A stretch of DNA of 64,000 nt from assembly GCF_024298765.1 (NCBI RefSeq), contig NZ_CP101210.1; one strand, given 5' to 3'. This DNA is from Escherichia coli (GTDB taxonomy: Bacteria; Pseudomonadota; Gammaproteobacteria; Enterobacterales; Enterobacteriaceae). Position numbers and translations under genes: made by a program. The stretch's first letter is position 1. The number at the start of each line of letters is the position of its first letter. The notes under the pieces are model-generated. The model did not search any database. It saw nothing but the letters and a program-made list of their open reading frames with translations, and was not told the DNA's origin. Positions 2,606 to 27,810 of the stretch are shown here, piece after piece.

Positions 2606-3595
2606 ATGAAACTCGCCGTTTATAGCACAAAACAGTACGACAAGAAGTACCTGCAACAGGTGAACGAGTCCTTTGGCTTTGAGCTGGAATTTTTTGACTT
2701 TCTGCTGACGGAAAAAACCGCTAAAACTGCCAATGGCTGCGAAGCGGTATGTATTTTCGTAAACGATGACGGCAGCCGCCCGGTGCTGGAAGAGCTGAAA
2801 AAGCACGGCGTTAAATATATCGCCCTGCGCTGTGCCGGTTTCAATAACGTCGACCTTGACGCGGCAAAAGAACTGGGGCTGAAAGTAGTCCGTGTTCCAG
2901 CCTATGATCCAGAAGCCGTTGCTGAACACGCCATCGGTATGATGATGACGCTGAACCGTCGTATTCATCGCGCGTATCAGCGTACTCGTGACGCCAACTT
3001 CTCTCTGGAAGGTCTGACCGGCTTTACTATGTATGGAAAAACGGCAGGCGTTATCGGTACCGGTAAAATCGGTGTGGCGATGCTGCGCATTCTGAAAGGT
3101 TTTGGTATGCGTCTGCTGGCGTTCGATCCGTATCCAAGTGCGGCGGCACTGGAACTCGGTGTGGAGTATGTCGATCTGCCAACCCTGTTCTCTGAATCAG
3201 ACGTTATCTCTCTGCACTGCCCGCTGACACCGGAAAACTACCATCTGTTGAACGAAGCCGCCTTCGATCAGATGAAAAATGGCGTGATGATCGTCAATAC
3301 CAGTCGCGGTGCATTGATTGATTCTCAGGCGGCAATTGAAGCGCTGAAAAATCAGAAAATTGGTTCGTTGGGTATGGACGTGTATGAGAACGAACGCGAT
3401 CTGTTCTTTGAAGATAAATCCAACGACGTAATTCAGGATGACGTATTCCGTCGCCTGTCTGCCTGCCACAACGTGCTGTTTACCGGGCATCAGGCATTCC
3501 TGACAGCAGAAGCGCTGACCAGTATTTCTCAGACTACGCTGCAAAACTTAAGCAATCTGGAAAAAGGCGAAACCTGCCCGAACGAACTGGTTTAA
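2606..3595 (+). CDS. ldhA: Fermentative D-lactate dehydrogenase (D-2-hydroxyacid dehydrogenase family)
   Basis: 329-aa ORF; NAD-binding motif GVIGTGKIG; N-terminus MKLAVYSTKQYDKKYLQQVNE matches remembered LdhA. Confidence 0.97.
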   Translation: MKLAVYSTKQYDKKYLQQVNESFGFELEFFDFLLTEKTAKTANGCEAVCIFVNDDGSRPVLEELKKHGVKYIALRCAGFNNVDLDAAKELGLKVVRVPAYDPEAVAEHAIGMMMTLNRRIHRAYQRTRDANFSLEGLTGFTMYGKTAGVIGTGKIGVAMLRILKGFGMRLLAFDPYPSAAALELGVEYVDLPTLFSESDVISLHCPLTPENYHLLNEAAFDQMKNGVMIVNTSRGALIDSQAAIEALKNQKIGSLGMDVYENERDLFFEDKSNDVIQDDVFRRLSACHNVLFTGHQAFLTAEALTSISQTTLQNLSNLEKGETCPNELV

Positions 3596-3602
3596 TCTTG
3601 CC

Positions 3603-3625
3603 GCTCCCCTGCATTCCAGGGGAGC
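3603..3625 (+). terminator. Hairpin downstream of ldhA (9-bp perfect stem gctcccctg / caggggagc); weak T tract
   Basis: Inverted repeat read directly from sequence just 3' of the ldhA stop. Confidence 0.4.
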
Positions 3626-3705
3626 TTATTCAGATAATCCCCAAAGACCTTTCATCCTCTATTCTTAAAATAGTCCTGAATCAGAAACAGTAATTGAGAA
3701 CCACA

Positions 3706-4128
3706 ATGAAGAAAGTAGCCGCGCTTGTTGCGCTAAGCCTGCTGATGGCGGGATGTGTAAGTAGTGACAAAATTGCTGTAACGCCAGAACAGCTACAGCA
3801 TCATCGCTTTGTGCTGGAAAGCGTAAACGGTAAGCCCGTGACCAGCGATAAAAATCCGCCAGAAATCAGCTTTGGTGAAAAGATGATGATTTCCGGCAGC
3901 ATGTGTAACCGCTTTAGCGGTGAAGGCAAACTGTCTAATGGTGAACTGACCGCCAAAGGGCTGGCAATGACCCGTATGATGTGCGCTAACCCGCAGCTTA
4001 ATGAACTCGATAACACCATTAGCGAAATGCTGAAAGAAGGTGCACAAGTGGATCTGACCGCGAACCAGTTAACGCTGGCGACCGCGAAACAGACATTAAC
4101 TTATAAGCTGGCGGATTTAATGAATTAA
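3706..4128 (+). CDS. hslJ: Heat-shock lipoprotein HslJ
   Basis: ORF 3694..4128; start preferred at MKKVAALVALSLLMAGC (lipobox LMAGC), giving 140 aa. Confidence 0.9.
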   Translation: MKKVAALVALSLLMAGCVSSDKIAVTPEQLQHHRFVLESVNGKPVTSDKNPPEISFGEKMMISGSMCNRFSGEGKLSNGELTAKGLAMTRMMCANPQLNELDNTISEMLKEGAQVDLTANQLTLATAKQTLTYKLADLMN

Positions 4129-8189: not shown

Positions 8190-8216
8190 ATGCACTGGAT
8201 AAGGATTATCCAATTC

Positions 8217-8255
8217 TAAAAAAAAGCCCGGACGACTGTTCGGGCTTGTCTTTTT
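8217..8255. terminator. Bidirectional intrinsic terminator shared by convergent ydbK (+) and micC (-)
   Basis: GC-rich hairpin (aagcccg ... cgggctt) flanked by an A run on one side and a T run on the other. Confidence 0.75.
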
Positions 8256-8327
8256 ATATGTTGGAAAATCAGTAGCAATGCAATGGCCCAACAGAAAATA
8301 AAATCTGTGACAATAAAGGCATATAAC
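8218..8327 (-). ncRNA. micC: MicC sRNA (Hfq-dependent repressor of ompC/ompD)
   Basis: Reverse complement reads GTTATATGCCTTTATTGTCACAGATTTTATTTTCTGTTGGGCCATTGCATTGCTACTGATTTTCCAACATATAAAAAGACAAGCCCGAACAGTCGTCCGGGCTTTTTTT, matching remembered MicC with about one mismatch; located between ydbK and ompN. Confidence 0.9.
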
Positions 8328-8554
8328 CCGCGCAGAATAACGTATAGCAAATTAAAAGTATAATTTTTATTTTGTATGTATTATCTTCAATACATTCACC
8401 AGACTTATTATCATTTCCGTAGAATTATTTGATTAAGGTTTTACTTAAGGCGTAACAAATGATATTTATCGGCTAACTGAACTTCTCCTTTAGGATGTTT
8501 TCACTCCCCGAAATGGGGATAAAAGGCAAATAAAATAACTAAAGGATTTATTCA

Positions 8555-9747: not shown

Positions 9748-10263
<516 letters not shown>

Positions 10264-10270
10264 CACTAAC

Positions 10271-10295
10271 GCCCGCACATTGCTGCGGGCTTTTT
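10271..10295 (+). terminator. Intrinsic terminator after uspF
   Basis: Hairpin gcccgca / tgcgggc followed by TTTTT. Confidence 0.7.
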
Positions 10296-10438
10296 GATTC
10301 ATTTCGCAAATGTGCTGACATTTTCCCCTCTAATCCGTACCATACACGCCACAGTTTTTATATCAGATTTCTTATGCTGGGCGTTCCGGCATGACGCATA
10401 CTCTTCTGATGCCATATAACGAATTGAGTCGCTTTTAA

Positions 10439-11374
10439 ATGTCGCAAAATCAAGAAATTAGTAAGAAAGAACAATACAACCTGAACAAATTACAAAAACG
10501 TCTGCGTCGTAACGTGGGCGAAGCCATTGCTGACTTCAATATGATTGAAGAAGGCGATCGCATCATGGTTTGCCTCTCCGGGGGTAAAGACAGCTATACC
10601 ATGCTGGAAATTCTGCGCAATTTGCAGCAAAGCGCGCCAATCAATTTTTCGCTGGTGGCTGTTAACCTCGATCAAAAGCAACCGGGCTTCCCGGAACACG
10701 TTCTGCCCGAGTATCTTGAAAAGCTGGGCGTTGAGTACAAGATTGTGGAAGAGAACACTTACGGTATCGTGAAAGAGAAGATTCCGGAGGGCAAAACCAC
10801 TTGCTCACTGTGTTCTCGTCTTCGTCGCGGTATCCTTTATCGCACCGCAACGGAACTGGGGGCGACGAAGATCGCGCTGGGTCACCATCGTGACGATATC
10901 CTGCAAACGTTGTTCTTAAATATGTTCTACGGCGGCAAGATGAAAGGTATGCCTCCGAAACTGATGAGCGATGATGGCAAACATATTGTGATTCGTCCGC
11001 TGGCCTACTGCCGCGAGAAAGATATTCAGCGCTTTGCCGATGCAAAAGCGTTCCCGATTATTCCGTGCAACCTGTGCGGTTCACAGCCTAACCTGCAACG
11101 TCAGGTGATTGCTGACATGTTGCGTGACTGGGATAAACGTTATCCAGGGCGTATCGAGACGATGTTCAGCGCGATGCAGAATGTGGTGCCGTCGCATCTG
11201 TGCGATACCAACCTGTTCGATTTCAAAGGTATTACCCACGGTTCTGAAGTGGTTAACGGGGGTGATCTGGCGTTTGATCGCGAAGAGATCCCTCTACAAC
11301 CGGCGGGTTGGCAGCCTGAAGAAGATGAAAATCAGTTGGATGAGTTACGGCTGAATGTGGTTGAAGTGAAATAA
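10439..11374 (+). CDS. ttcA: tRNA 2-thiocytidine biosynthesis protein TtcA (PP-loop ATPase), with the native prophage-free N-terminus
   Basis: 311-aa ORF; PP-loop motif SGGKDS; CxxC pairs; N-terminus [12 protein letters not shown] differs from the remembered Rac-altered K-12 N-terminus. Confidence 0.93.
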
Positions 11375-13136: not shown

Positions 13137-13258
13137 AAAAAAAAGCCGACTCATCAAAGTCGGCGTCGTACGAATCAATTGTGCTATGCAGTAATTCAAA
13201 AAAGGAAGTAAGACAATATGGAGCGCAACGCCCATCGCTTGACGTTGCATTCACCTGC
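13137..13258 (-). ncRNA. fnrS: FnrS sRNA (FNR-activated, anaerobic)
   Basis: Reverse complement reads GCAGGTGAATGCAACGTCAAGCGATGGGCGTTGCGCTCCATATTGTCTTACTTCC...GACTTTGATGAGTCGGCTTTTTTTT with terminal hairpin and U tail; located between zntB and dbpA. Confidence 0.9.
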
Positions 13259-16602: not shown

Positions 16603-18117
16603 TCAGGATGATTTATTCATAGCAGGAACCAACAAAAATGCGATAAATAACAGACCACTGATTAGCAGAAAGGTATCCGAAAATGCCATAGTTTGCGCCT
16701 CCCTCAGCATCAACTGACTCAATAATTTGGTTGAAGCCAGTATTTCCGATGTCTGGTCACTTCCACTGCGATTAAAAAACAAAGCACTTCTGGAAATGAA
16801 GTCATTCACCGTATGGGGAACAGAAACCATTTTTTCACCCATTCTCGAAAAATGAAAATTAGTTCGATTATTGAGAATAGAGCCACACAGGGCAATACCA
16901 ATCGCGCCCCCAAGATTACGTGTTAAATTAAATACACCAGAGGCTAACTTCAGCCGTTCCTTTGGAATTCCCCCCAGCGTTAATGTTACGATGGGGGCCA
17001 TCGCAAACTGCTGCGAAATCCCTCTAATTGCCTGTGGAAACAGTAACTCCTGCCATCCCCATTCGTGGGTTATAGGGGTAAAAAGATACATTGAAAACAC
17101 AAATCCACCCAGCCCCGCCATCAACAGCCATCGCAGATTTATTTTTTTACTTAACCAGAAGTAAAAGGGAACAGAAAATAACTGGAAAATACCTGTTGTG
17201 CAAACGGCAAAACCTATCTCTTCGGCATTTAATCCGCGAACCTGCCCCAAAAACACAGGTATTAAATATACAGTAGAGAATATCCCAACCCCTCCAGAAA
17301 AAGAAAAAAAACATCCCAGCGTGAAATTTTTATCCTTAAAAGCATGAAGATCCATTATCGGATTGGATATTGTAAGTGTACGCGCAGCAAATAAAATAAA
17401 ACTCACCAATGCCAGAACTGATGTCAGCAAAATAGTATTATCATCCAGCCATCCCCAGCGCGCTCCTTCTTCAAGGGTATATTCCAGACATCCCAGTGTC
17501 ATGGCCAACAGGATAATACTCGGATAATCAGCAACTTTCAGTAAAGAGAGATCAGGTTTATCAAAATTAACCAGAAAAGGAATACTCAAAACTAAATATA
17601 TGCCAGGTAATATATTGATATAAAATAGCCATCGCCAGTCGAGGTTATCAGTGATCCAGCCCCCCAGAGTTGGCCCTAGCGTCGGTGACAGTGAGGCCAG
17701 CGCACTGACTACCGCAGCAGCCAACCCCAACTCTTTACCCTGGTAATAAATAAACGCCGTCGTGAAAACTAAAGGGATCATGGATGCGCCAGCCGCTCCC
17801 TGTAAAGCACGAAACAAAATCATGATCTGAATATTCCATGCAAGTCCACACGCGATACTCATTAAAGTAAATATTCCCGCGGATAGAGTAAAAAGCCAAC
17901 GAGTGGAAAATACCCGTGACAGCCACCCAGAGAGCGGAATAACAATAATCTCAGCAATTAAATAGCTGGTCTGAAGCCAGGCCATTTCGTCTTTACCTGC
18001 GGACAGACCACCACCTATTTCATTTAGGGATGACGATACAATTTGAATATCAAGCTGAGCAATAAATAATCCCATACACATACTGGCGAAAGCAATATGT
18101 TTACGCATAGACATCAT
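16603..18117 (-). CDS. MFS drug efflux transporter, EmrB/QacA (DHA2, 14-TMS) type; not a K-12 gene at this position
   Basis: 504-aa hydrophobic ORF with MFS architecture; start overlaps the stop of the upstream HlyD-family gene by 4 nt (operon). Confidence 0.8.
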   Translation of the reverse strand: MMSMRKHIAFASMCMGLFIAQLDIQIVSSSLNEIGGGLSAGKDEMAWLQTSYLIAEIIVIPLSGWLSRVFSTRWLFTLSAGIFTLMSIACGLAWNIQIMILFRALQGAAGASMIPLVFTTAFIYYQGKELGLAAAVVSALASLSPTLGPTLGGWITDNLDWRWLFYINILPGIYLVLSIPFLVNFDKPDLSLLKVADYPSIILLAMTLGCLEYTLEEGARWGWLDDNTILLTSVLALVSFILFAARTLTISNPIMDLHAFKDKNFTLGCFFSFSGGVGIFSTVYLIPVFLGQVRGLNAEEIGFAVCTTGIFQLFSVPFYFWLSKKINLRWLLMAGLGGFVFSMYLFTPITHEWGWQELLFPQAIRGISQQFAMAPIVTLTLGGIPKERLKLASGVFNLTRNLGGAIGIALCGSILNNRTNFHFSRMGEKMVSVPHTVNDFISRSALFFNRSGSDQTSEILASTKLLSQLMLREAQTMAFSDTFLLISGLLFIAFLLVPAMNKSS

Positions 18118-19145
18118 CTCTCATCGACACTGACGGTGACGGACAGTCCCGGGCGAAGAAGTTGCTTTAATTCCTTTGCGTCGTCAAATGCAATCCGTAC
18201 CGGGACACGCTGAACAATTTTGGTGAAATTGCCAGTGGCATTTTCTATCGGAATCAAGCTGAAACTGGCTCCTGTCGCTGGGGAAAGGCTTTCAATGTGA
18301 CCGTGAAACACTTCCCCTTTGAGAATATCAGCACGGATCTCAGCCTTCATTCCTGGCTTCATTCCCGCTATTTGGTTTTCTTTATAATTTGCATCAACCC
18401 ACAACTCACTGACTGGTACAAGTGAAACTAACGATGTGCCGCCTTCCACCCAACTGCCTGTATGGGCGCTGCGGTTTGCGACAATGCCATCAATCGGCGC
18501 ACGAACAAGGGTATATTCCAGATCCAGTAGTGCCTGAGTCAAAGCGGCCTGAACTTCTTCGATACTCGCACGTACGTTTTCTTCCTGAGCAGATAAAACT
18601 GCCAGCCGTTGCTTCTCCACCAGGAAATCGTTCGCGGCTTTGCGCTCCTTTGCTGCGACCTGCTGGTAGTCAAACCTGGCGTTATCAATAATTTGCTGCG
18701 ATATTGCCGCTGATTGTACGAGTTTTTCATAACGTTCAGTATCTCGCAGGCGCTTTTGCTCCTCATGTTTTACTGCCTGCCATGTTTCACTGGCACTTTG
18801 AATTATCGACTGCTGCATCGTAATAGTGGCTTGAATGCTTTCGAGATTGGCTTTTCTACTTTTTATTTTTGCCTCAAGCCTGGCGACATTTGCACGATAA
18901 TCCCGATCATCGAGACGCAGGATAATATCGCCTTTTTTTACGCTCTGATTATCACGCACCTCTATAGCAGAAATATAACCAGAAACTTTACTTGCCACCG
19001 TGGTAATATTACCACCAATGTAAGCATCATCCGTCGTCTGTATAAATCTTCCTTTGCTTACCCACCAGATAAAAAAGACAACGCCAGCCAAAATAATACC
19101 GATCGCTACTACCCCAATAAGCTGTTTTTTAGAAATTATCATCAC
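18114..19145 (-). CDS. HlyD-family membrane fusion protein (EmrA-like periplasmic adaptor)
   Basis: 343-aa ORF: N-terminal TM anchor (VVAIGIILAGVVFFIWW), long coiled-coil region, C-terminal beta-barrel-like domain; translationally coupled to the MFS gene. Confidence 0.8.
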   Translation of the reverse strand: MMIISKKQLIGVVAIGIILAGVVFFIWWVSKGRFIQTTDDAYIGGNITTVASKVSGYISAIEVRDNQSVKKGDIILRLDDRDYRANVARLEAKIKSRKANLESIQATITMQQSIIQSASETWQAVKHEEQKRLRDTERYEKLVQSAAISQQIIDNARFDYQQVAAKERKAANDFLVEKQRLAVLSAQEENVRASIEEVQAALTQALLDLEYTLVRAPIDGIVANRSAHTGSWVEGGTSLVSLVPVSELWVDANYKENQIAGMKPGMKAEIRADILKGEVFHGHIESLSPATGASFSLIPIENATGNFTKIVQRVPVRIAFDDAKELKQLLRPGLSVTVSVDER

Positions 19146-19500
19146 TCTTTACACCGTATATATCCGGAAACTTGCATTCGCCATATTTAAAATTTAACAT
19201 GGCTTATTTGATGATTTCTGACAAAATACCTACTGTAAATGACAATCACACTGCAACCCAAAGCATCACCAGGGCATCACATTATCGGACTGGATTCGGA
19301 ACATCTGAATGGAGGCACAGTTCCCTGGCATAAACATCTCTATGCCCAGTTGCTTTACCCGGCTGAAGGAGTCGTTCGTGTATGGGCTGGAGAAAGCGTC
19401 TGGCTAGTGCATGCCAGCAGCGCGCTTTGGCTGCCCCCACAAATGCCGCATAAGTTTGTTGCGACAGGCAACGTACTTTTAAAAACCGTACTGGTTTCAG

Positions 19501-19509
19501 AAGCGGAAA
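19501..19509. repeat. Left copy of the 9-bp target site duplication (AAGCGGAAA)
   Basis: Identical 9-mer directly abuts both ends of the IS (19501..19509 and 20567..20575). Confidence 0.9.
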
Positions 19510-20566
19510 GGCTTTGTTGAATAAATCAAATTTCGGGTAAGTCTCCCCCGTAGCGGGTTGTGTTTTCAGGCAATACGCACGCTTTCAGGTATACCTGCTT
19601 TCGTCATTTTGTTCAGCGCTCGTACCAGGGCCATAGCCTCCGCAACCTGACCATCGTAGTCACGCAGCGTCAGTGCCCCCCCGAACAGCTGTTTTACCCG
19701 GTACATCGCCGTTTCCGCTATCGAGCGACGGTTGTAATCTGTTGTCCATTTCCACCGCGCATTACTCCCGGTCATTCGCTGATTAGCCACTGCACGGTTA
19801 CGGTCTGCATATTCACCGGGCCAGTAACCCGCACCTTTTCGGGGAGGGATAAGCGCGCTGATTTTCTTACGCCGCAGTTCATCGTGACATAGCCGGGTAT
19901 CGTAAGCGCCATCGGCGGCGGCTGACCTGATTTTCCGGTGGGTTTGCCGGATTAACCCGGGGAAGGCCTCTGAGTCCGTAACGTTGTTCAGCGACAGGTC
20001 TGCACAGATGATTTCATGTGTTTTACTGTCAACGGCGAGATGCAGCTTACGCCAGATACGGCGGCGTTCCTGGCCATGCTTTTTGACTTTCCACTCGCCT
20101 TCACCGAAGACCTTCAGCCCGGTGGAATCAATCACCAGATGTGCGATTTCACCCCGGGTGGGCGTTTTGAAACTGACATTAACCGACTTTGCCCGCCTGC
20201 TGACACAGCTGTAATCCGGGCAGCGTAGCGGAACGTTCATCAGAGAAAAAATGGAATCAATAAAGCCCTGCGCAGCGCGCAGGGTCAGCCTGAATACGCG
20301 TTTAATGACCAGCACAGTCGTGATGGCAAGGTCAGAATAGCGCTGAGGTCTGCCTCGTGAAGAAGGTGTTGCTGACTCATACCAGGCCTGAATAGCTTCA
20401 TCATCCAGCCAGAAAGTTATGGAGCCACGGTTGATGAGGGCTTTATTGTAGGTGGGCCAGTTGGTGATTTTGAACTTTTGCTTTGCCACGGAACGGTCTG
20501 CGTTGTCGGGAAGATACGTGATCTGATCCTTCAACTCAGCAAAAGTTCGATTTATTCAACAAAGCC
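19510..20566 (-). mobile_element. IS903-like insertion sequence (IS5 family, IS903 group), 1057 bp
   Basis: Terminal 18-bp inverted repeats GGCTTTGTTGAATAAATC at 19510..19527 and, inverted, at 20549..20566; right end matches the remembered IS903 end GGCTTTGTTGAATAAATCGAACTTTTGCTGAGTTGAAGGATCAGATC; single transposase ORF; flanked by 9-bp direct repeats. Confidence 0.92.
19566..20534 (-). CDS. IS903-family DDE transposase
   Basis: 322-aa ORF (true start may be internal) resembling the remembered IS903 transposase (e.g. GRPQRYSDLAI..., WRKLHLAVD...THEIICADLSLNNVTD...); transcribed toward the HlyD/MFS genes. Confidence 0.9.
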   Translation of the reverse strand: MKDQITYLPDNADRSVAKQKFKITNWPTYNKALINRGSITFWLDDEAIQAWYESATPSSRGRPQRYSDLAITTVLVIKRVFRLTLRAAQGFIDSIFSLMNVPLRCPDYSCVSRRAKSVNVSFKTPTRGEIAHLVIDSTGLKVFGEGEWKVKKHGQERRRIWRKLHLAVDSKTHEIICADLSLNNVTDSEAFPGLIRQTHRKIRSAAADGAYDTRLCHDELRRKKISALIPPRKGAGYWPGEYADRNRAVANQRMTGSNARWKWTTDYNRRSIAETAMYRVKQLFGGALTLRDYDGQVAEAMALVRALNKMTKAGIPESVRIA

Positions 20567-20575
20567 AAGCGGAAA
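20567..20575. repeat. Right copy of the 9-bp target site duplication (AAGCGGAAA)
   Basis: See left copy. Confidence 0.9.
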
Positions 20576-21190
20576 GTGAAACGCTGGGAAAAGTTTGCTT
20601 CATGACGGGTATTTCACCCCTGTTAAGAGAATTACTAATTGCAATTAACCAACTTCCACCGTCGCAAAGTACCACAGATAAACAACAGTTACGTTTTTCA
20701 GCCCTCGAGACACTGATACTTCAGGAAATAAAAATGGGGGTGAAAATGTCACTTGAACTCCCTTGGCCAAATGATGAGCGGCTACAGCAGCTTTGTGAGA
20801 ATTTGCTAAACAACCAAGGGTATCTGCCAACACTGGATAATCTAGCGGATAAAATTAACGTCAGTAGCCGTACACTCATGCGCTTATTTGTTAAAGAGAC
20901 GGGATTAACATTTCGCCACTGGGTTCAGCAAATGCACGTTATTTCTGCAGTGACGCTTCTTGATGATGGATATTCGTTGACCAAAATTGCCCATCGTCTG
21001 GGCTATGCCTCAGCTGAATCGTTCGGCAATATGTTTAAGCGTCGAACGGGCTACTCGCCCGGTAAATTTACTCGTCGATTAACGATGCATGATTATGCAA
21101 TCACAAGGCAAATGATTTAACTTATATTTTCGTGAAATCTGTCACTGAAGAAAATTGGCAACGGATGGGTAAAACCGTTATAACACTGTC

Positions 21191-21285
21191 ACCGGTCACC
21201 AGGACCCCAGGCCGGATTTAAGACGAGGATGCACTGCTGTGTGTACTGTAGAGTCTGGCGGATGTCGACAGGCTCTATTTTTTTA
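21191..21285 (+). ncRNA. mcaS: McaS (IsrA) sRNA, CsrA-binding regulator of motility and biofilm
   Basis: ACCGGTCACCAGGACCCCAGGCCGGATTTAAGACGAGGATGCACTGCTGTGTGTACTGTAGAGTCTGGCGGATGTCGACAGGCTCTATTTTTTT matches remembered McaS core with GGA motifs and intrinsic terminator; from memory, so the 5' boundary is approximate. Confidence 0.65.
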
Positions 21286-21663
21286 TTCATTTTTTAGCTC
21301 TGTAAATAACCACATTCTCGCCGGGATTGGGGAATGAGTGACGAGATCAGTGGTGTCTGGCGGCTATCACGCCACAGAATCAAATAACAGATAGCCTACG
21401 GTAAAATTTCGCTGACTGGAATTATCCCACCCTCGATCCATGTGATGGCTTGCCCTCATTTCTTCAGGCAGAAAAATCAAAAAATCGCTTTATGCTATCA
21501 GACTGCGACAAACCAGACGCGAAACTGGGTACTTACTATTCGTTAGTCTTGCCCTATCCGCTTATCTTTTTGGTGGTATGGCTGCTGATGTTGCTGGCGT
21601 GGTATCTTGTTGGTCTGCCGATAGGTCCGGGGATTTACCCACGTTTGTCTTAAGAGAGAACGG

Positions 21664-22179
21664 ATGCTGAGATTACTTGAAGAAAAAATTGCCACGCCAC
21701 TGGGTCCACTATGGGTGATTTGCGATGAGCAATTTCGCCTGCGGGCGGTTGAATGGGAAGAGTACAGCGAACGCATGGTGCAGCTGCTGGACATCCATTA
21801 TCGCAAAGAAGGCTATGAGCGCATTTCTGCCGCCAACCCAGGTGGTTTAAGCGACAAGCTTCGTGAATATTTTGCCGGTAATCTTAGCATTATTGATACG
21901 CTTCCCACTGCCACGGGGGGGACGCCATTTCAGCGCGAAGTCTGGAAAACACTGCGCACCATCCCCTGCGGGCAGGTAATGCATTATGGCCAACTGGCTG
22001 AACAATTAGGCCGCCCTGGCGCAGCGCGTGCCGTAGGTGCGGCAAATGGATCGAATCCCATCAGCATCGTCGTACCTTGCCATCGGGTTATTGGCCGAAA
22101 CGGCACCATGACCGGATATGCAGGCGGAGTTCAGCGAAAAGAGTGGTTATTGCGCCACGAAGGTTATCTTTTGCTGTAA
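21664..22179 (+). CDS. ogt: O6-alkylguanine-DNA alkyltransferase
   Basis: 171-aa ORF; active-site motif PCHRV. Confidence 0.95.
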
Positions 22180-25860: not shown

Positions 25861-27474
25861 TCAATGCTTCACAATATACATAGTCCGACTGTACGCCACA
25901 TCTTCCGGGTTATTAATGGGATAACCTTTCAGCCACGGCTTGATTAATCGTCCATTGGTATATTGATAAATTGGTGCAATCGGTGCTTGCTCCATGAGGA
26001 TTTTTTCTGCCGCATTGTAATCGGCATTACGCGCTTTAACGGTATTTTCCGTTGATGCCTGGGCCAGTACTTTGTCGTATGCCGGATTGTTAAAGCGTGA
26101 AATATTTCCTGAATGCGTTGACGTTAATAATGTCAGGAAAGTGGAGGGTTCATTATAATCCCCTACCCACGAGGCTCGGATAACATCAAAATTGCCGGTG
26201 TTACGGCTATCGATATAGGTTTTCCATTCCTGATTTTGCAATTTAACATCTAAGCCAAGGTTCTTTTTCCACATTGATGCTACAGCAATCGCAATTTTTT
26301 GATGGTTTTCTGAAGTGTTATACAAAAGCGTCAGCTTCAGCGGTTTTTGCGGACCATAACCAGCTGCGCTCAACAAAGTTTTTGCCTGCGCATTCAGTTC
26401 TTCCTGACTCATTTGTTCAAACGGCGAAGGTTCCGGCGTAAATCCTGCAGTAACATCTGGTGTAAAATGCCACGCTGGCTTTTCGCCCGTTCCCAACACT
26501 TTTTCGGTCATCAGGCGGCGATCTATCGTCATACTTAATGCCAGGCGAACACGCTGATCGGCCGTCGGCCCTTTTTGCGTGTTAAACGCATAATAATAGG
26601 TCCCGAGCTGTGGCGGCGTATAAACCTGCCCCGGAATATCCTTCAACAGCTTCTGATACATATTTTTCGGGAAGGATTCGGTGATATCAATATCCCCCGC
26701 GAGATAACGCTTAGTGGCTGCGGATTCCTGATTAATTGGCAGGAAGGTCACTTTTTGCAGCACCGTTTTGGCGTTATCCCAATAATGGGTATTCGGTACC
26801 ACGACCAGTTTTTCATTGACTACGCGCTCTTTAAGAACATAAGCGCCATTACCGATCAGATTTCCGGGTTTCGTCCACTCTTTACTGCTTTCTACGTTGG
26901 CTTTTTGCACCGGGAAGAAGGCAAAGTTAGCGGTTAAATTCACAAACCACGGCAACGGTTTATCAAGCTGGATTTTCAAAGTTTGGGCATCAACTGCGGT
27001 GACGCCAAGCTGGTCAGGCGCGGCTTTACCATCAATAATCGCCTGTGCGTTGTTGATTCCCGCCAGCGCGGCAAACCATGCAAATGGCGACAATGTTTTT
27101 GGGTCCACCAGACGTTGCCAGCTGTAGACAAAATCTTGCGCCGTTACCGGTGTGCCATCCGCCCATTTTGCGTTATCGCGCAGGGTAAAAGTCCAGATAC
27201 GGTTGTCATTACTTTTCCACTGAGTCGCAACGCCGGGGACAATCTCCCCTTTCTCGTTCTGATTCACCAGTCCTTCAAACAGATCGCGAATGACCTGAAT
27301 CTCTGGCAGGCCCACGGCTTTAGCGGGATCCAGCGACGCAGGCTCATCTTTAATGTGGCGCACCAGCTCCTGCTTCTCTGCCAGTACTGTGCCGCTCGGA
27401 ACTTCAGCAGCATACGAAAGAGAAATGCTGCTGACCAACAGCGCACAACACGTGACTGAAACAGAGTGCTTCAT
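25861..27474 (-). CDS. mppA: Periplasmic murein tripeptide-binding protein MppA (oligopeptide SBP family 5)
   Basis: ORF 25861..27495; start preferred at MKHSVSVTCCALLVSSISLSYA (signal peptide), 537 aa. Confidence 0.94.
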   Translation of the reverse strand: MKHSVSVTCCALLVSSISLSYAAEVPSGTVLAEKQELVRHIKDEPASLDPAKAVGLPEIQVIRDLFEGLVNQNEKGEIVPGVATQWKSNDNRIWTFTLRDNAKWADGTPVTAQDFVYSWQRLVDPKTLSPFAWFAALAGINNAQAIIDGKAAPDQLGVTAVDAQTLKIQLDKPLPWFVNLTANFAFFPVQKANVESSKEWTKPGNLIGNGAYVLKERVVNEKLVVVPNTHYWDNAKTVLQKVTFLPINQESAATKRYLAGDIDITESFPKNMYQKLLKDIPGQVYTPPQLGTYYYAFNTQKGPTADQRVRLALSMTIDRRLMTEKVLGTGEKPAWHFTPDVTAGFTPEPSPFEQMSQEELNAQAKTLLSAAGYGPQKPLKLTLLYNTSENHQKIAIAVASMWKKNLGLDVKLQNQEWKTYIDSRNTGNFDVIRASWVGDYNEPSTFLTLLTSTHSGNISRFNNPAYDKVLAQASTENTVKARNADYNAAEKILMEQAPIAPIYQYTNGRLIKPWLKGYPINNPEDVAYSRTMYIVKH

Positions 27475-27532
27475 AAGTTTCCCTCTAACCGACATTAAAA
27501 TTGATGCGTAATTATTTGTTTCGCCTTAAAGA

Positions 27533-27562
27533 AATGCAAACAACTTCCATCAAAAAAGTGAC
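27533..27562. promoter_or_regulatory. Copy A of a conserved 30-nt motif (AAATGCAAACAACTTCCATCAAAAAAGTGA) upstream of mppA
   Basis: Near-identical copy at 30643..30672 upstream of mpaA (28 of 30 positions); function unknown. Confidence 0.5.
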
Positions 27563-27810
27563 AAAGGAAGCATCAAATGTTTTAAGTATCAATATATCAA
27601 ATCAGATTTAGTGTAAATAATAGTCTCCAAAATGCGGTAAAGCACATAGAACTCCGAACACTACGTTCGGGCTTCGCACGTTCAAACCCGTTTTCGGTAT
27701 CATAATCAGCATCTGTCGCCATTGTACGAAGAATAAAAAATAACCAAAACGTTGAAAGGAACTGAGAATACGTTAAGAGAAAAATTAAATTAATGTATCA
27801 GCAAGTAGTG

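Follow-up and report, generated by a model that had tools for sequence, protein, structure and literature searches.

Introduction

The Rac prophage of Escherichia coli K-12 sits at the 5′ end of ttcA, the gene for tRNA 2-thiocytidine-32 synthetase, and where no prophage separates ttcA from its neighbor uspF, the locus raises the question of whether the DNA found there is host sequence that no phage has ever used, or is itself what an older phage has left behind. We examined this question in a stretch of 64,000 nucleotides from the E. coli contig NZ_CP101210.1 (assembly GCF_024298765.1), referred to here as the window, for which an earlier note had described an unoccupied Rac-type attachment site next to a native ttcA 5′ end. 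Our comparisons lead us to conclude, with high confidence, that positions 10463–10488 are an unoccupied attachment site (attB) of the Rac family, and that the region upstream of it is what erosion has left of the 3′ part of an earlier integrase gene, with the layout of a promoter. Because the intergenic region holds this older integrase fragment, the site is better seen as healed than as never used.

The sequences of attL, attR and attB, together with a difference of four residues between TtcA and TtcA′, have been published; strains free of rac carry TtcA′, and this allele was called an ancient copy (Liu et al., 2015, Sci Rep, PMC4632033). The attachment sequences and TtcA′ were seen again upon induced excision (PMC11014345). 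A 2023 report in Nucleic Acids Research (NAR) gave only Q6E and T8S as the changes after excision (PMC11014345), which, we infer, reflects the placement of the deletion in read mapping and not another crossover. The integrase-derived block upstream of ttcA appears to be new, in that no earlier description of it was found in the searchable literature.

The attachment site in the window is unoccupied

The coding sequence of uspF (9829–10263, on the plus strand, as are all features of the uspF–ttcA interval described below except where stated) forms the left host flank of the site; it was assigned from its open reading frame (ORF) and translation, and differs from K-12 uspF at three positions. 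It is followed by an intrinsic terminator identified by a terminator scan (10271–10296), i.e., the GC-rich hairpin GCCCGCACATTGCTGCGGGC and then a run of T, and by the ORF of ttcA (10439–11374), which is an allele of the TtcA′ or pre-Rac type. The spacing of 175 bp given in the earlier note is exact, with the uspF stop at 10263 and the ttcA ATG at 10439. The annotation of the near-identical E. coli strain 104 gives both genes these same positions. The window differs from that strain by a few single-nucleotide polymorphisms (SNPs), by one added IS903-family insertion and by the lack of the ISVsa5 that strain 104 carries. That Rac lies between uspF and ttcA in K-12 is borne out by the K-12 annotation.

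In a three-way alignment with the two K-12 Rac junctions, a check that had been proposed for this locus, the window tracks the uspF side of K-12 up to a stretch of 26 bp, and tracks the ttcA side from there on. This stretch, AAGAAAGAACAATACAACCTGAACAA (10463–10488), defines the att core. It corresponds to ttcA codons 9–17, is common to K-12 attL and attR with 26/26 identity to both copies, and is present once in the window and twice in K-12, where the copies lie exactly at the annotated ends of Rac. No chance copy of it would be expected in the window even with three mismatches allowed, and the same 26 bp are annotated as the att site of phage Rac-SA53. By its identity to sites known to recombine, 10463–10488 is the predicted attB for IntR-mediated integration. 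The earlier placement of attB at 10264–10480 holds insofar as the site is there, but most of that interval is intergenic, and the core, which is inside ttcA, runs 8 nt further, to 10488.

The core is intact, and neither int nor xis nor other Rac prophage DNA lies between the flanks of the site, as expected of the empty site that had been proposed. Blastn with all of Rac found no Rac DNA in the entire 64-kb window, the site itself included, and tblastn of XisR against the window gave no match. The sole tblastn match of IntR in the window was marginal (E=0.11) and lies at 10293–10358, in the uspF–ttcA spacer. When Rac was excised in silico, i.e., when the K-12 flanks were joined at the 26-bp repeat, the product equaled positions 9829–11374 of the window, bar 20 SNPs and one 1-bp insertion or deletion (indel).

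The TtcA protein of the window is identical to that of K-12 at 306 of 311 residues, and four of the five differences fall at residues 2, 3, 6 and 8. The K-12 N-terminus reads MQENQQITKKEQ, with the changes from window to K-12 being S2Q, Q3E, E6Q and S8T; the window has the host-type start MSQNQEIS, compared to the phage-type start MQENQQIT. In K-12 the 51-nt pseudogene ttcC adjoins uspF, and its translation equals the TtcA N-terminus of the window. The suggestion that the window has the native N-terminus is upheld to this extent: its start is of the ttcC type, and K-12 carries a different, phage-supplied N-terminus. Codons 2–8 of ttcA (10442–10462) are, from the alignment with the K-12 junctions, the part that is replaced upon integration of a Rac-type phage. 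Within them, on the minus strand, lies an integration host factor (IHF) consensus sequence, TAATTTCTTGATT, and an IHF consensus adjoining the core has been reported at this position in K-12 (PMC8407004).

The spacer upstream of ttcA contains an integrase-like block

In targeted comparisons of protein and DNA, a block at 10305–10358 was found to be homologous to IntR codons ~344–361, i.e., to the box II region of the integrase (NPYHTRH); this block also holds the putative ttcA promoter described below. Positions 10308–10382 translate as KCADIFPSNPYHTRHSF / KCADIFPSNPYHTRHSFYIRFLMLG and align with IntR residues 345–369 (KRAGIRRRNPYHTRHTFACWLLTAG) at a protein local score of 58, compared to a mean of 28.8 (sd 4.1) in 500 shuffles, none of which scored as high. 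As DNA, 39 of 51 positions are identical to intR (~76%), including an identical run of 15 nt, and the score of 42 compares with a mean of 17 (sd 2.2) and a maximum of 29 in 1,000 shuffles. Weaker collinear matches to the 3′ end of intR and to the int–ttcA spacer, with ~124 nt deleted, reach the ttcA ATG. From these weak matches, 10359–10438 would be the decayed rest of the integrase 3′ end and of the phage arm, and is the presumed 5′ untranslated region of ttcA.

The block can be aligned across 13 taxa. When the positions of the promoter motif are set aside, 25 of the remaining 47 are identical to intR in E. coli, where ~12 would be expected, and 23–34 of 47 are identical in other enteric short remnants, compared to 10–19 of 47, i.e., the chance level, in Vibrionaceae, Rahnella and Budvicia. 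Since the similarity of the E. coli block extends beyond the positions that it shares with these motif-only taxa, we class it as an integrase remnant. We conclude from these alignments that the ‘native’ ttcA upstream region (~10305–10438) has its apparent origin in an older phage of the same family, and the first eight ttcA codons probably come from an older phage of the Rac family as well. The view that the upstream DNA is native thus stands in one respect, as the DNA is of the pre-Rac type, and fails in another, as part of an older Rac-type integrase gene survives, in decayed form, between uspF and ttcA.

Were the locus pristine and ancestral, both the uspF–ttcA spacer and the MSQNQEIS start would be purely of host origin, and the similarity to integrase would be due to chance. 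The label of ancient copy given to this allele by Liu et al. accords with such an origin, as do the shortness of the segment and the E value of only 0.11 in the whole-window tblastn. The targeted comparisons of protein and DNA, on the other hand, fall far outside the shuffles, the 25/47 identical non-motif positions would have to be coincidental, and the match sits exactly where other species have integrase remnants, graded from full genes to short stubs. A pristine locus is strongly disfavored by this evidence, and we assign it very little probability.

Integrase genes and their remnants abut ttcA in other taxa

The ttcA loci of 80 species were fetched, 1.36 Mb in total. A full integrase gene abuts ttcA in Enterobacter cloacae and in two metagenome-assembled genomes (MAGs), and a long integrase remnant does so in E. 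albertii, Enterobacter spp., Kluyvera, strain RIT691 and Brenneria. A short remnant, comprising the box II region only, abuts ttcA in E. coli, Citrobacter, Pseudocitrobacter, E. asburiae, Superficieibacter, Pectobacterium and Mangrovibacter, and in these short remnants the homology begins at a near-identical left edge. All integrase-bearing ttcA loci have in common the block AAAACGTGCTGGCATTCGCCGCCGTAATCCGTACCATAC(A/G)CG(C/G)CA, and throughout the sampled Enterobacteriaceae a block of ~50 nt, CTGRCA-N11-AATCCGTACCATAC, is found upstream of ttcA.

Two stacked layers lie upstream of ttcA in Enterobacter sp. Ag1 (locus L031 of our collection, 3471–4010). An old block at 3488 and a ttcC-like fragment, ATGGCCACTCAAAAAGAACAATACAACCTGATTTAG (3568–3603), which ends at the core, are followed by an integrase remnant equivalent to IntR 325–411 with a second block at 3753, and then by ttcA. 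At the level of sequence, these layers are direct evidence of serial integration and decay, with near-total loss of the prophage.

The same two motifs are present upstream of ttcA in six Vibrionaceae, in Rahnella and in Budvicia, where similarity to int elsewhere is at the random level. In these taxa the motif is either a very old fossil cut down to its functional core, or an ancient host promoter that integrases have mimicked. If the host came first, CTGGCA-N11-ATCCGTAYCATAC would have been a ttcA promoter in the ancestor of Vibrio and Enterobacterales that integrases of the Rac family later copied, and the E. coli region need not be a fossil. Besides the distribution of the motif, two observations speak for this order of events: two pattern scans of viral contigs gave zero matches to the Vibrio-type motif, so that no phage with it was found in them, and the outgroup integrase of 933W has KAYQS where IntR has NPYHT, so that the motif-matching residues would be derived in the lineage that targets ttcA. 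Copying from the host nevertheless leaves unexplained the int-like spacers (codons RRR) and flanks of the enteric short remnants, including that of E. coli, as well as the layered remnants, and the convergence on a 14-nt motif with a correctly spaced –35 element inside a catalytic domain would be demanding. We consider such mimicry possible, though doubtful. It is compatible with the fossil origin proposed here for Enterobacteriaceae, from which it differs on the deep origin only: given the int-like spacers and flanks of the enteric remnants and the layered sites, the resident copy in Enterobacteriaceae would be phage-derived under either origin. A scan of viral contigs for diverse integrase relatives gave near-identical Rac integrases only, and genome loci, PHB10 and 933W were used instead.

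Conservation of the block and a putative ttcA promoter

The integrases of K-12 and Ent. cloacae have 70% amino-acid identity and use the same codon at 40% of their conserved residues gene-wide, compared to 19 of 20 identical codons at residues 344–363, the most extreme stretch in the gene. For two intact integrase genes and six remnants, all of them next to ttcA, nucleotide identity to intR is 86–97% in the block. Outside the block it is 62–72% in seven of the eight; the exception, at 91%, is the remnant of E. albertii, which resembles Rac closely over its whole length. In the wrbA-targeting integrase of 933W, the block is only 73% identical and encodes KAYQS in place of NPYHT. Because synonymous sites are conserved in the ttcA-targeting integrases and not in that of 933W, the block is, judged by its codons, constrained as DNA and specifically so in integrases that target ttcA. 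A recent mosaic exchange was also considered as the source of the 19/20 identical codons; it is unlikely, with local conservation in eight of eight ttcA-adjacent integrases and not in 933W.

A consensus scan places a putative –35 element, CTGACA, at 10315–10320 and a putative –10 element, TACCAT, at 10338–10343, with a spacer of 17 nt and a predicted transcription start near 10350–10351. The match to sigma-70 promoters is 9/12 and is weak alone, since ~2.7 such matches would be expected by chance in a 2-kb region. Conservation of exactly these elements across taxa gives the promoter extra weight. In other taxa and in int genes, CTGGCA, CTGGTA or CTAGCA is found at the place of the –35 element; the –10 hexamer varies across taxa at positions 3–4 only (TACCAT, TATCAT, TATTAT, TAGTAT), and the sequence of the spacer is free. 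The composite motif was matched 29 times in the 1.36 Mb, with 26 of the matches directly upstream of ttcA, one in the older layer of Ag1 and two stray. We regard the block as a putative sigma-70 promoter of ttcA, a role that seems moderately likely.

Layout of attP and the predicted course of integration

An uninterrupted attP was found in five IMG/VR viral contigs and in phage PHB10. After xis and int, a 51-nt spacer leads to the phage's own version of the ttcA start (ATGCAAGAAAATCAACAAATTACA), which is followed by the core and then by a right arm (GTAAGGGC...). Five copies of the repeat TTTGCCCC flank the core, two of them toward int (–67 and –56) and three on the opposite side (+131, +142 and +161), and this arrangement is shared by two diverged phages, PHB10 and the one represented by a Rac-like viral contig. 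A plausible reading of these repeats is that they are arm-type integrase binding sites; core-type inverted repeats were not detected around the att core. In all of the Rac-like elements compared, the minimal segment identical in host and phage was TACAACCTGA (10475–10484), the likely region of strand exchange. The ttcA-side core copy of Rac-SA53 differs at 10471–10473, the attP of PHB10 differs from the core at 10471 and 10486, and the layered site of Enterobacter sp. Ag1 confines identity to 10475–10484. Our best guess is that strand exchange takes place within these 10 nt, although later mutations could also have narrowed the identity.

These positions bear on whether the block might be no ttcA promoter but serve the phage itself in recombination or regulation, i.e., as an arm-type site (for Int, Xis or IHF) or as a control element of the int mRNA. 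The conservation of synonymous sites in intact int would fit any function at the level of DNA or RNA, and attP regions of the lambda type can extend into int. However, the arm repeats span –67 to +161 and the block, which lies between about –260 and –210 relative to the core, is without them; in addition, it is kept upstream of ttcA in hosts with no remaining prophage, and its variation follows the –10 pattern. A phage-site function in place of a promoter is, on this evidence, unlikely. The narrower candidate in which the block is principally an arm-type Int site was rejected, since the TTTGCCCC repeats lie elsewhere.

In the mechanism that we propose, the tyrosine integrase IntR would recombine the ttcA core with the identical core of attP, which lies just downstream of int and is preceded by a phage-encoded duplicate of the beginning of ttcA, i.e., the ATG and 8 further codons. 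Upon integration, the resident promoter would be displaced together with the first 17 codons of ttcA, which in K-12 became the ttcC next to uspF; the event would also join the phage-borne start to the remainder of ttcA. The ttcA-targeting integrases would carry a replacement ttcA promoter within their own box II coding region, and the presence of this promoter inside int would keep ttcA from being silenced by an integration into its 5′ end. After decay of the prophage, presumed selection for ttcA expression would retain only the piece with the promoter, and the site would in this way come to record repeated cycles of integration and decay.

In K-12 (locus L001 of our collection, 26794–27634; NC_000913.3 ~1,434,293–1,435,133, minus strand), the displaced old block and ttcC are oriented so as to read into Rac at its right end, where the small genes ynaM and ynaE have the same orientation. 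The putative host ttcA promoter may drive ynaM and ynaE in lysogens of the K-12 type.

Occupancy of the site among E. coli genomes

Population counts were made over 5,426 complete E. coli genomes. The uspF and ttcA genes are contiguous, i.e., the site is empty, in 2,485 of the 5,426 (46%), and a Rac-type integrase–ttcA junction is present in 2,906; together these two classes cover all but ~19 of the matching genomes. At least 80% of intR is present in 1,832 genomes, and only a ~232-nt stub of the int 3′ end in ~1,087 (~20%). Counted by class, i.e., 2,485 empty sites, 1,832 with near-full intR and ~1,087 stubs, the empty site is the single most common state. The strain of the window is simply one without the prophage, a state that is common and already described.

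An empty site might also have arisen by the recent loss of a Rac-like prophage through precise excision by IntR and XisR. Excision from K-12 regenerates exactly this sequence, and both kinds of site, occupied and empty, are frequent in E. coli. Precise excision would pass unmarked, so that the window is neutral in this respect, and no Rac DNA was found elsewhere in the 64 kb; a recent loss is a possible history, with the balance leaning against it.

The window does not diverge evenly from K-12. After the core, the 886 bp of ttcA (10489–11374) contain 17 differences (1.9%), compared to 3 (0.45%) in the 660 bp that begin with uspF and end with the core (9829–10488). Occupied genomes are likewise 96.9–98.4% identical to the window on the ttcA side and 99.1–99.6% on the uspF side. 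This unevenness may mean that alleles of ttcA are linked to Rac status.

Other features of the window

No known RNA family was found in the uspF–ttcA interval; MicC, FnrS and McaS were the only ones in the window and lie elsewhere. The small RNA (sRNA) genes MicC (8210–8330, minus strand) and FnrS (13141–13258, minus strand) are at their usual positions, flanking the ompN–uspF–ttcA–dbpA segment. McaS is still present at 21191–21286, in a region (~16660–21700, corresponding to strain 104 16662–20587 plus an insertion sequence) that is the place of abgR–abgABT in K-12-like genomes. Here the window holds a frameshifted DHA2 MFS efflux gene, an HlyD-family gene and an AraC-family regulator gene, and an abgR-like LysR gene and abgT survive as fragments only. 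The AraC-family regulator gene is interrupted by the IS903-family insertion (19511–20566) that is absent from strain 104. This insertion has terminal inverted repeats of 33 nt and an ORF for a 322-aa transposase (19566–20534, minus strand), and its target sequence, AAGCGGAAAG, is duplicated on either side (19501–19510 and 20567–20576).

Discussion

Taken one step further, the findings suggest that the ttcA promoter of Enterobacteriaceae is an exapted fragment of integrase box II, that Rac-family integrases carry the promoter of the gene they split over the codons of their own catalytic site, and that repeated integration and decay have renewed, from phage DNA, both the promoter in the host and the first eight TtcA codons. 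We hold this fuller proposal to be about evenly balanced between true and false.

Several points weigh against the reading of the upstream region as an integrase fossil with the layout of a promoter. The consensus scan finds no promoter in intR of K-12, where the –35 element is the weaker CTGGTA. In Vibrionaceae, Rahnella and Budvicia the motif comes without other similarity to int, and may be an ancient host promoter that phages copied, and not a fossil everywhere. The shared left edge of the short remnants could stem from recombination between old and new blocks, and not from selection. Finally, a history in which Rac was never present and one of precise excision give the same sequence.

If the proposal is true, a phage that inserts at the start of a gene makes good the displaced promoter by encoding a replacement inside its integrase, and this piece of the integrase gene later stays on in the host as the regular promoter. 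More broadly, ‘ancestral’ alleles at phage attachment sites can be derived from phages, which bears on comparisons of TtcA with TtcA′ and on estimates of prophage age at this locus. The empty attB alone matters little, being a documented and very common allele; its chief value is as an indicator of Rac status and as a place where Rac-like phages, and some lambdoid phages related to Stx phages, can land.

Comparison with known systems

The Rac attB and TtcA′ described previously are at the same locus, with the same core and the same difference of four residues, and the attB of the window is no different from that one (Liu et al., 2015, PMC4632033). In that work, TtcA′ and its upstream region were treated as an ancient host copy, and neither integrase homology nor an intergenic promoter was mentioned (Liu et al., 2015, PMC4632033). 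At the ttcC junction on the uspF side of K-12, positions 10264–10488 of the window are matched identically, including the old block, bar one intergenic 1-bp indel. From the core, K-12 continues into the phage right arm (GTAAGGGC...), whereas the window continues into ttcA.

The short Rac remnant of ATCC 25922 occupies the same site, with its prophage eroded to a stub of the int 3′ end that still abuts ttcA. That remnant is recent: its int fragment of 232 nt is 97.6% identical to the K-12 int–ttcA junction, its TtcA start is of the phage type, and ~2.3 kb of debris lie between uspF and ttcA. The window, in contrast, has a block at ~76% identity only and a host-type start, and does not group with recent remnants of the ATCC 25922 type.

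Coding sequences are also the targets of the tyrosine integrases of phage 21 and e14, which integrate in icd, and of 933W, which integrates in wrbA, and in these cases the phage supplies a near-copy of the part that it displaces, which keeps the gene working. The ttcA site differs from them in that the gene loses its 5′ end, so that a promoter is needed as well; the candidate for this promoter lies inside the integrase gene, and the 933W integrase is without the motif. In the listed phage records, no integrase outside the Rac and PHB10 types is closer to IntR than 933W Int (43.5%). At att sites in tRNA genes, tandem decayed islands are found in which reuse of the site leaves layered remnants, each with a fragment of the displaced gene. 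The Ag1 locus shows the same layering at ttcA; here, compared to the tRNA-gene islands, the target is the 5′ end of a protein-coding gene, and the remnant has apparently been taken over as its promoter.

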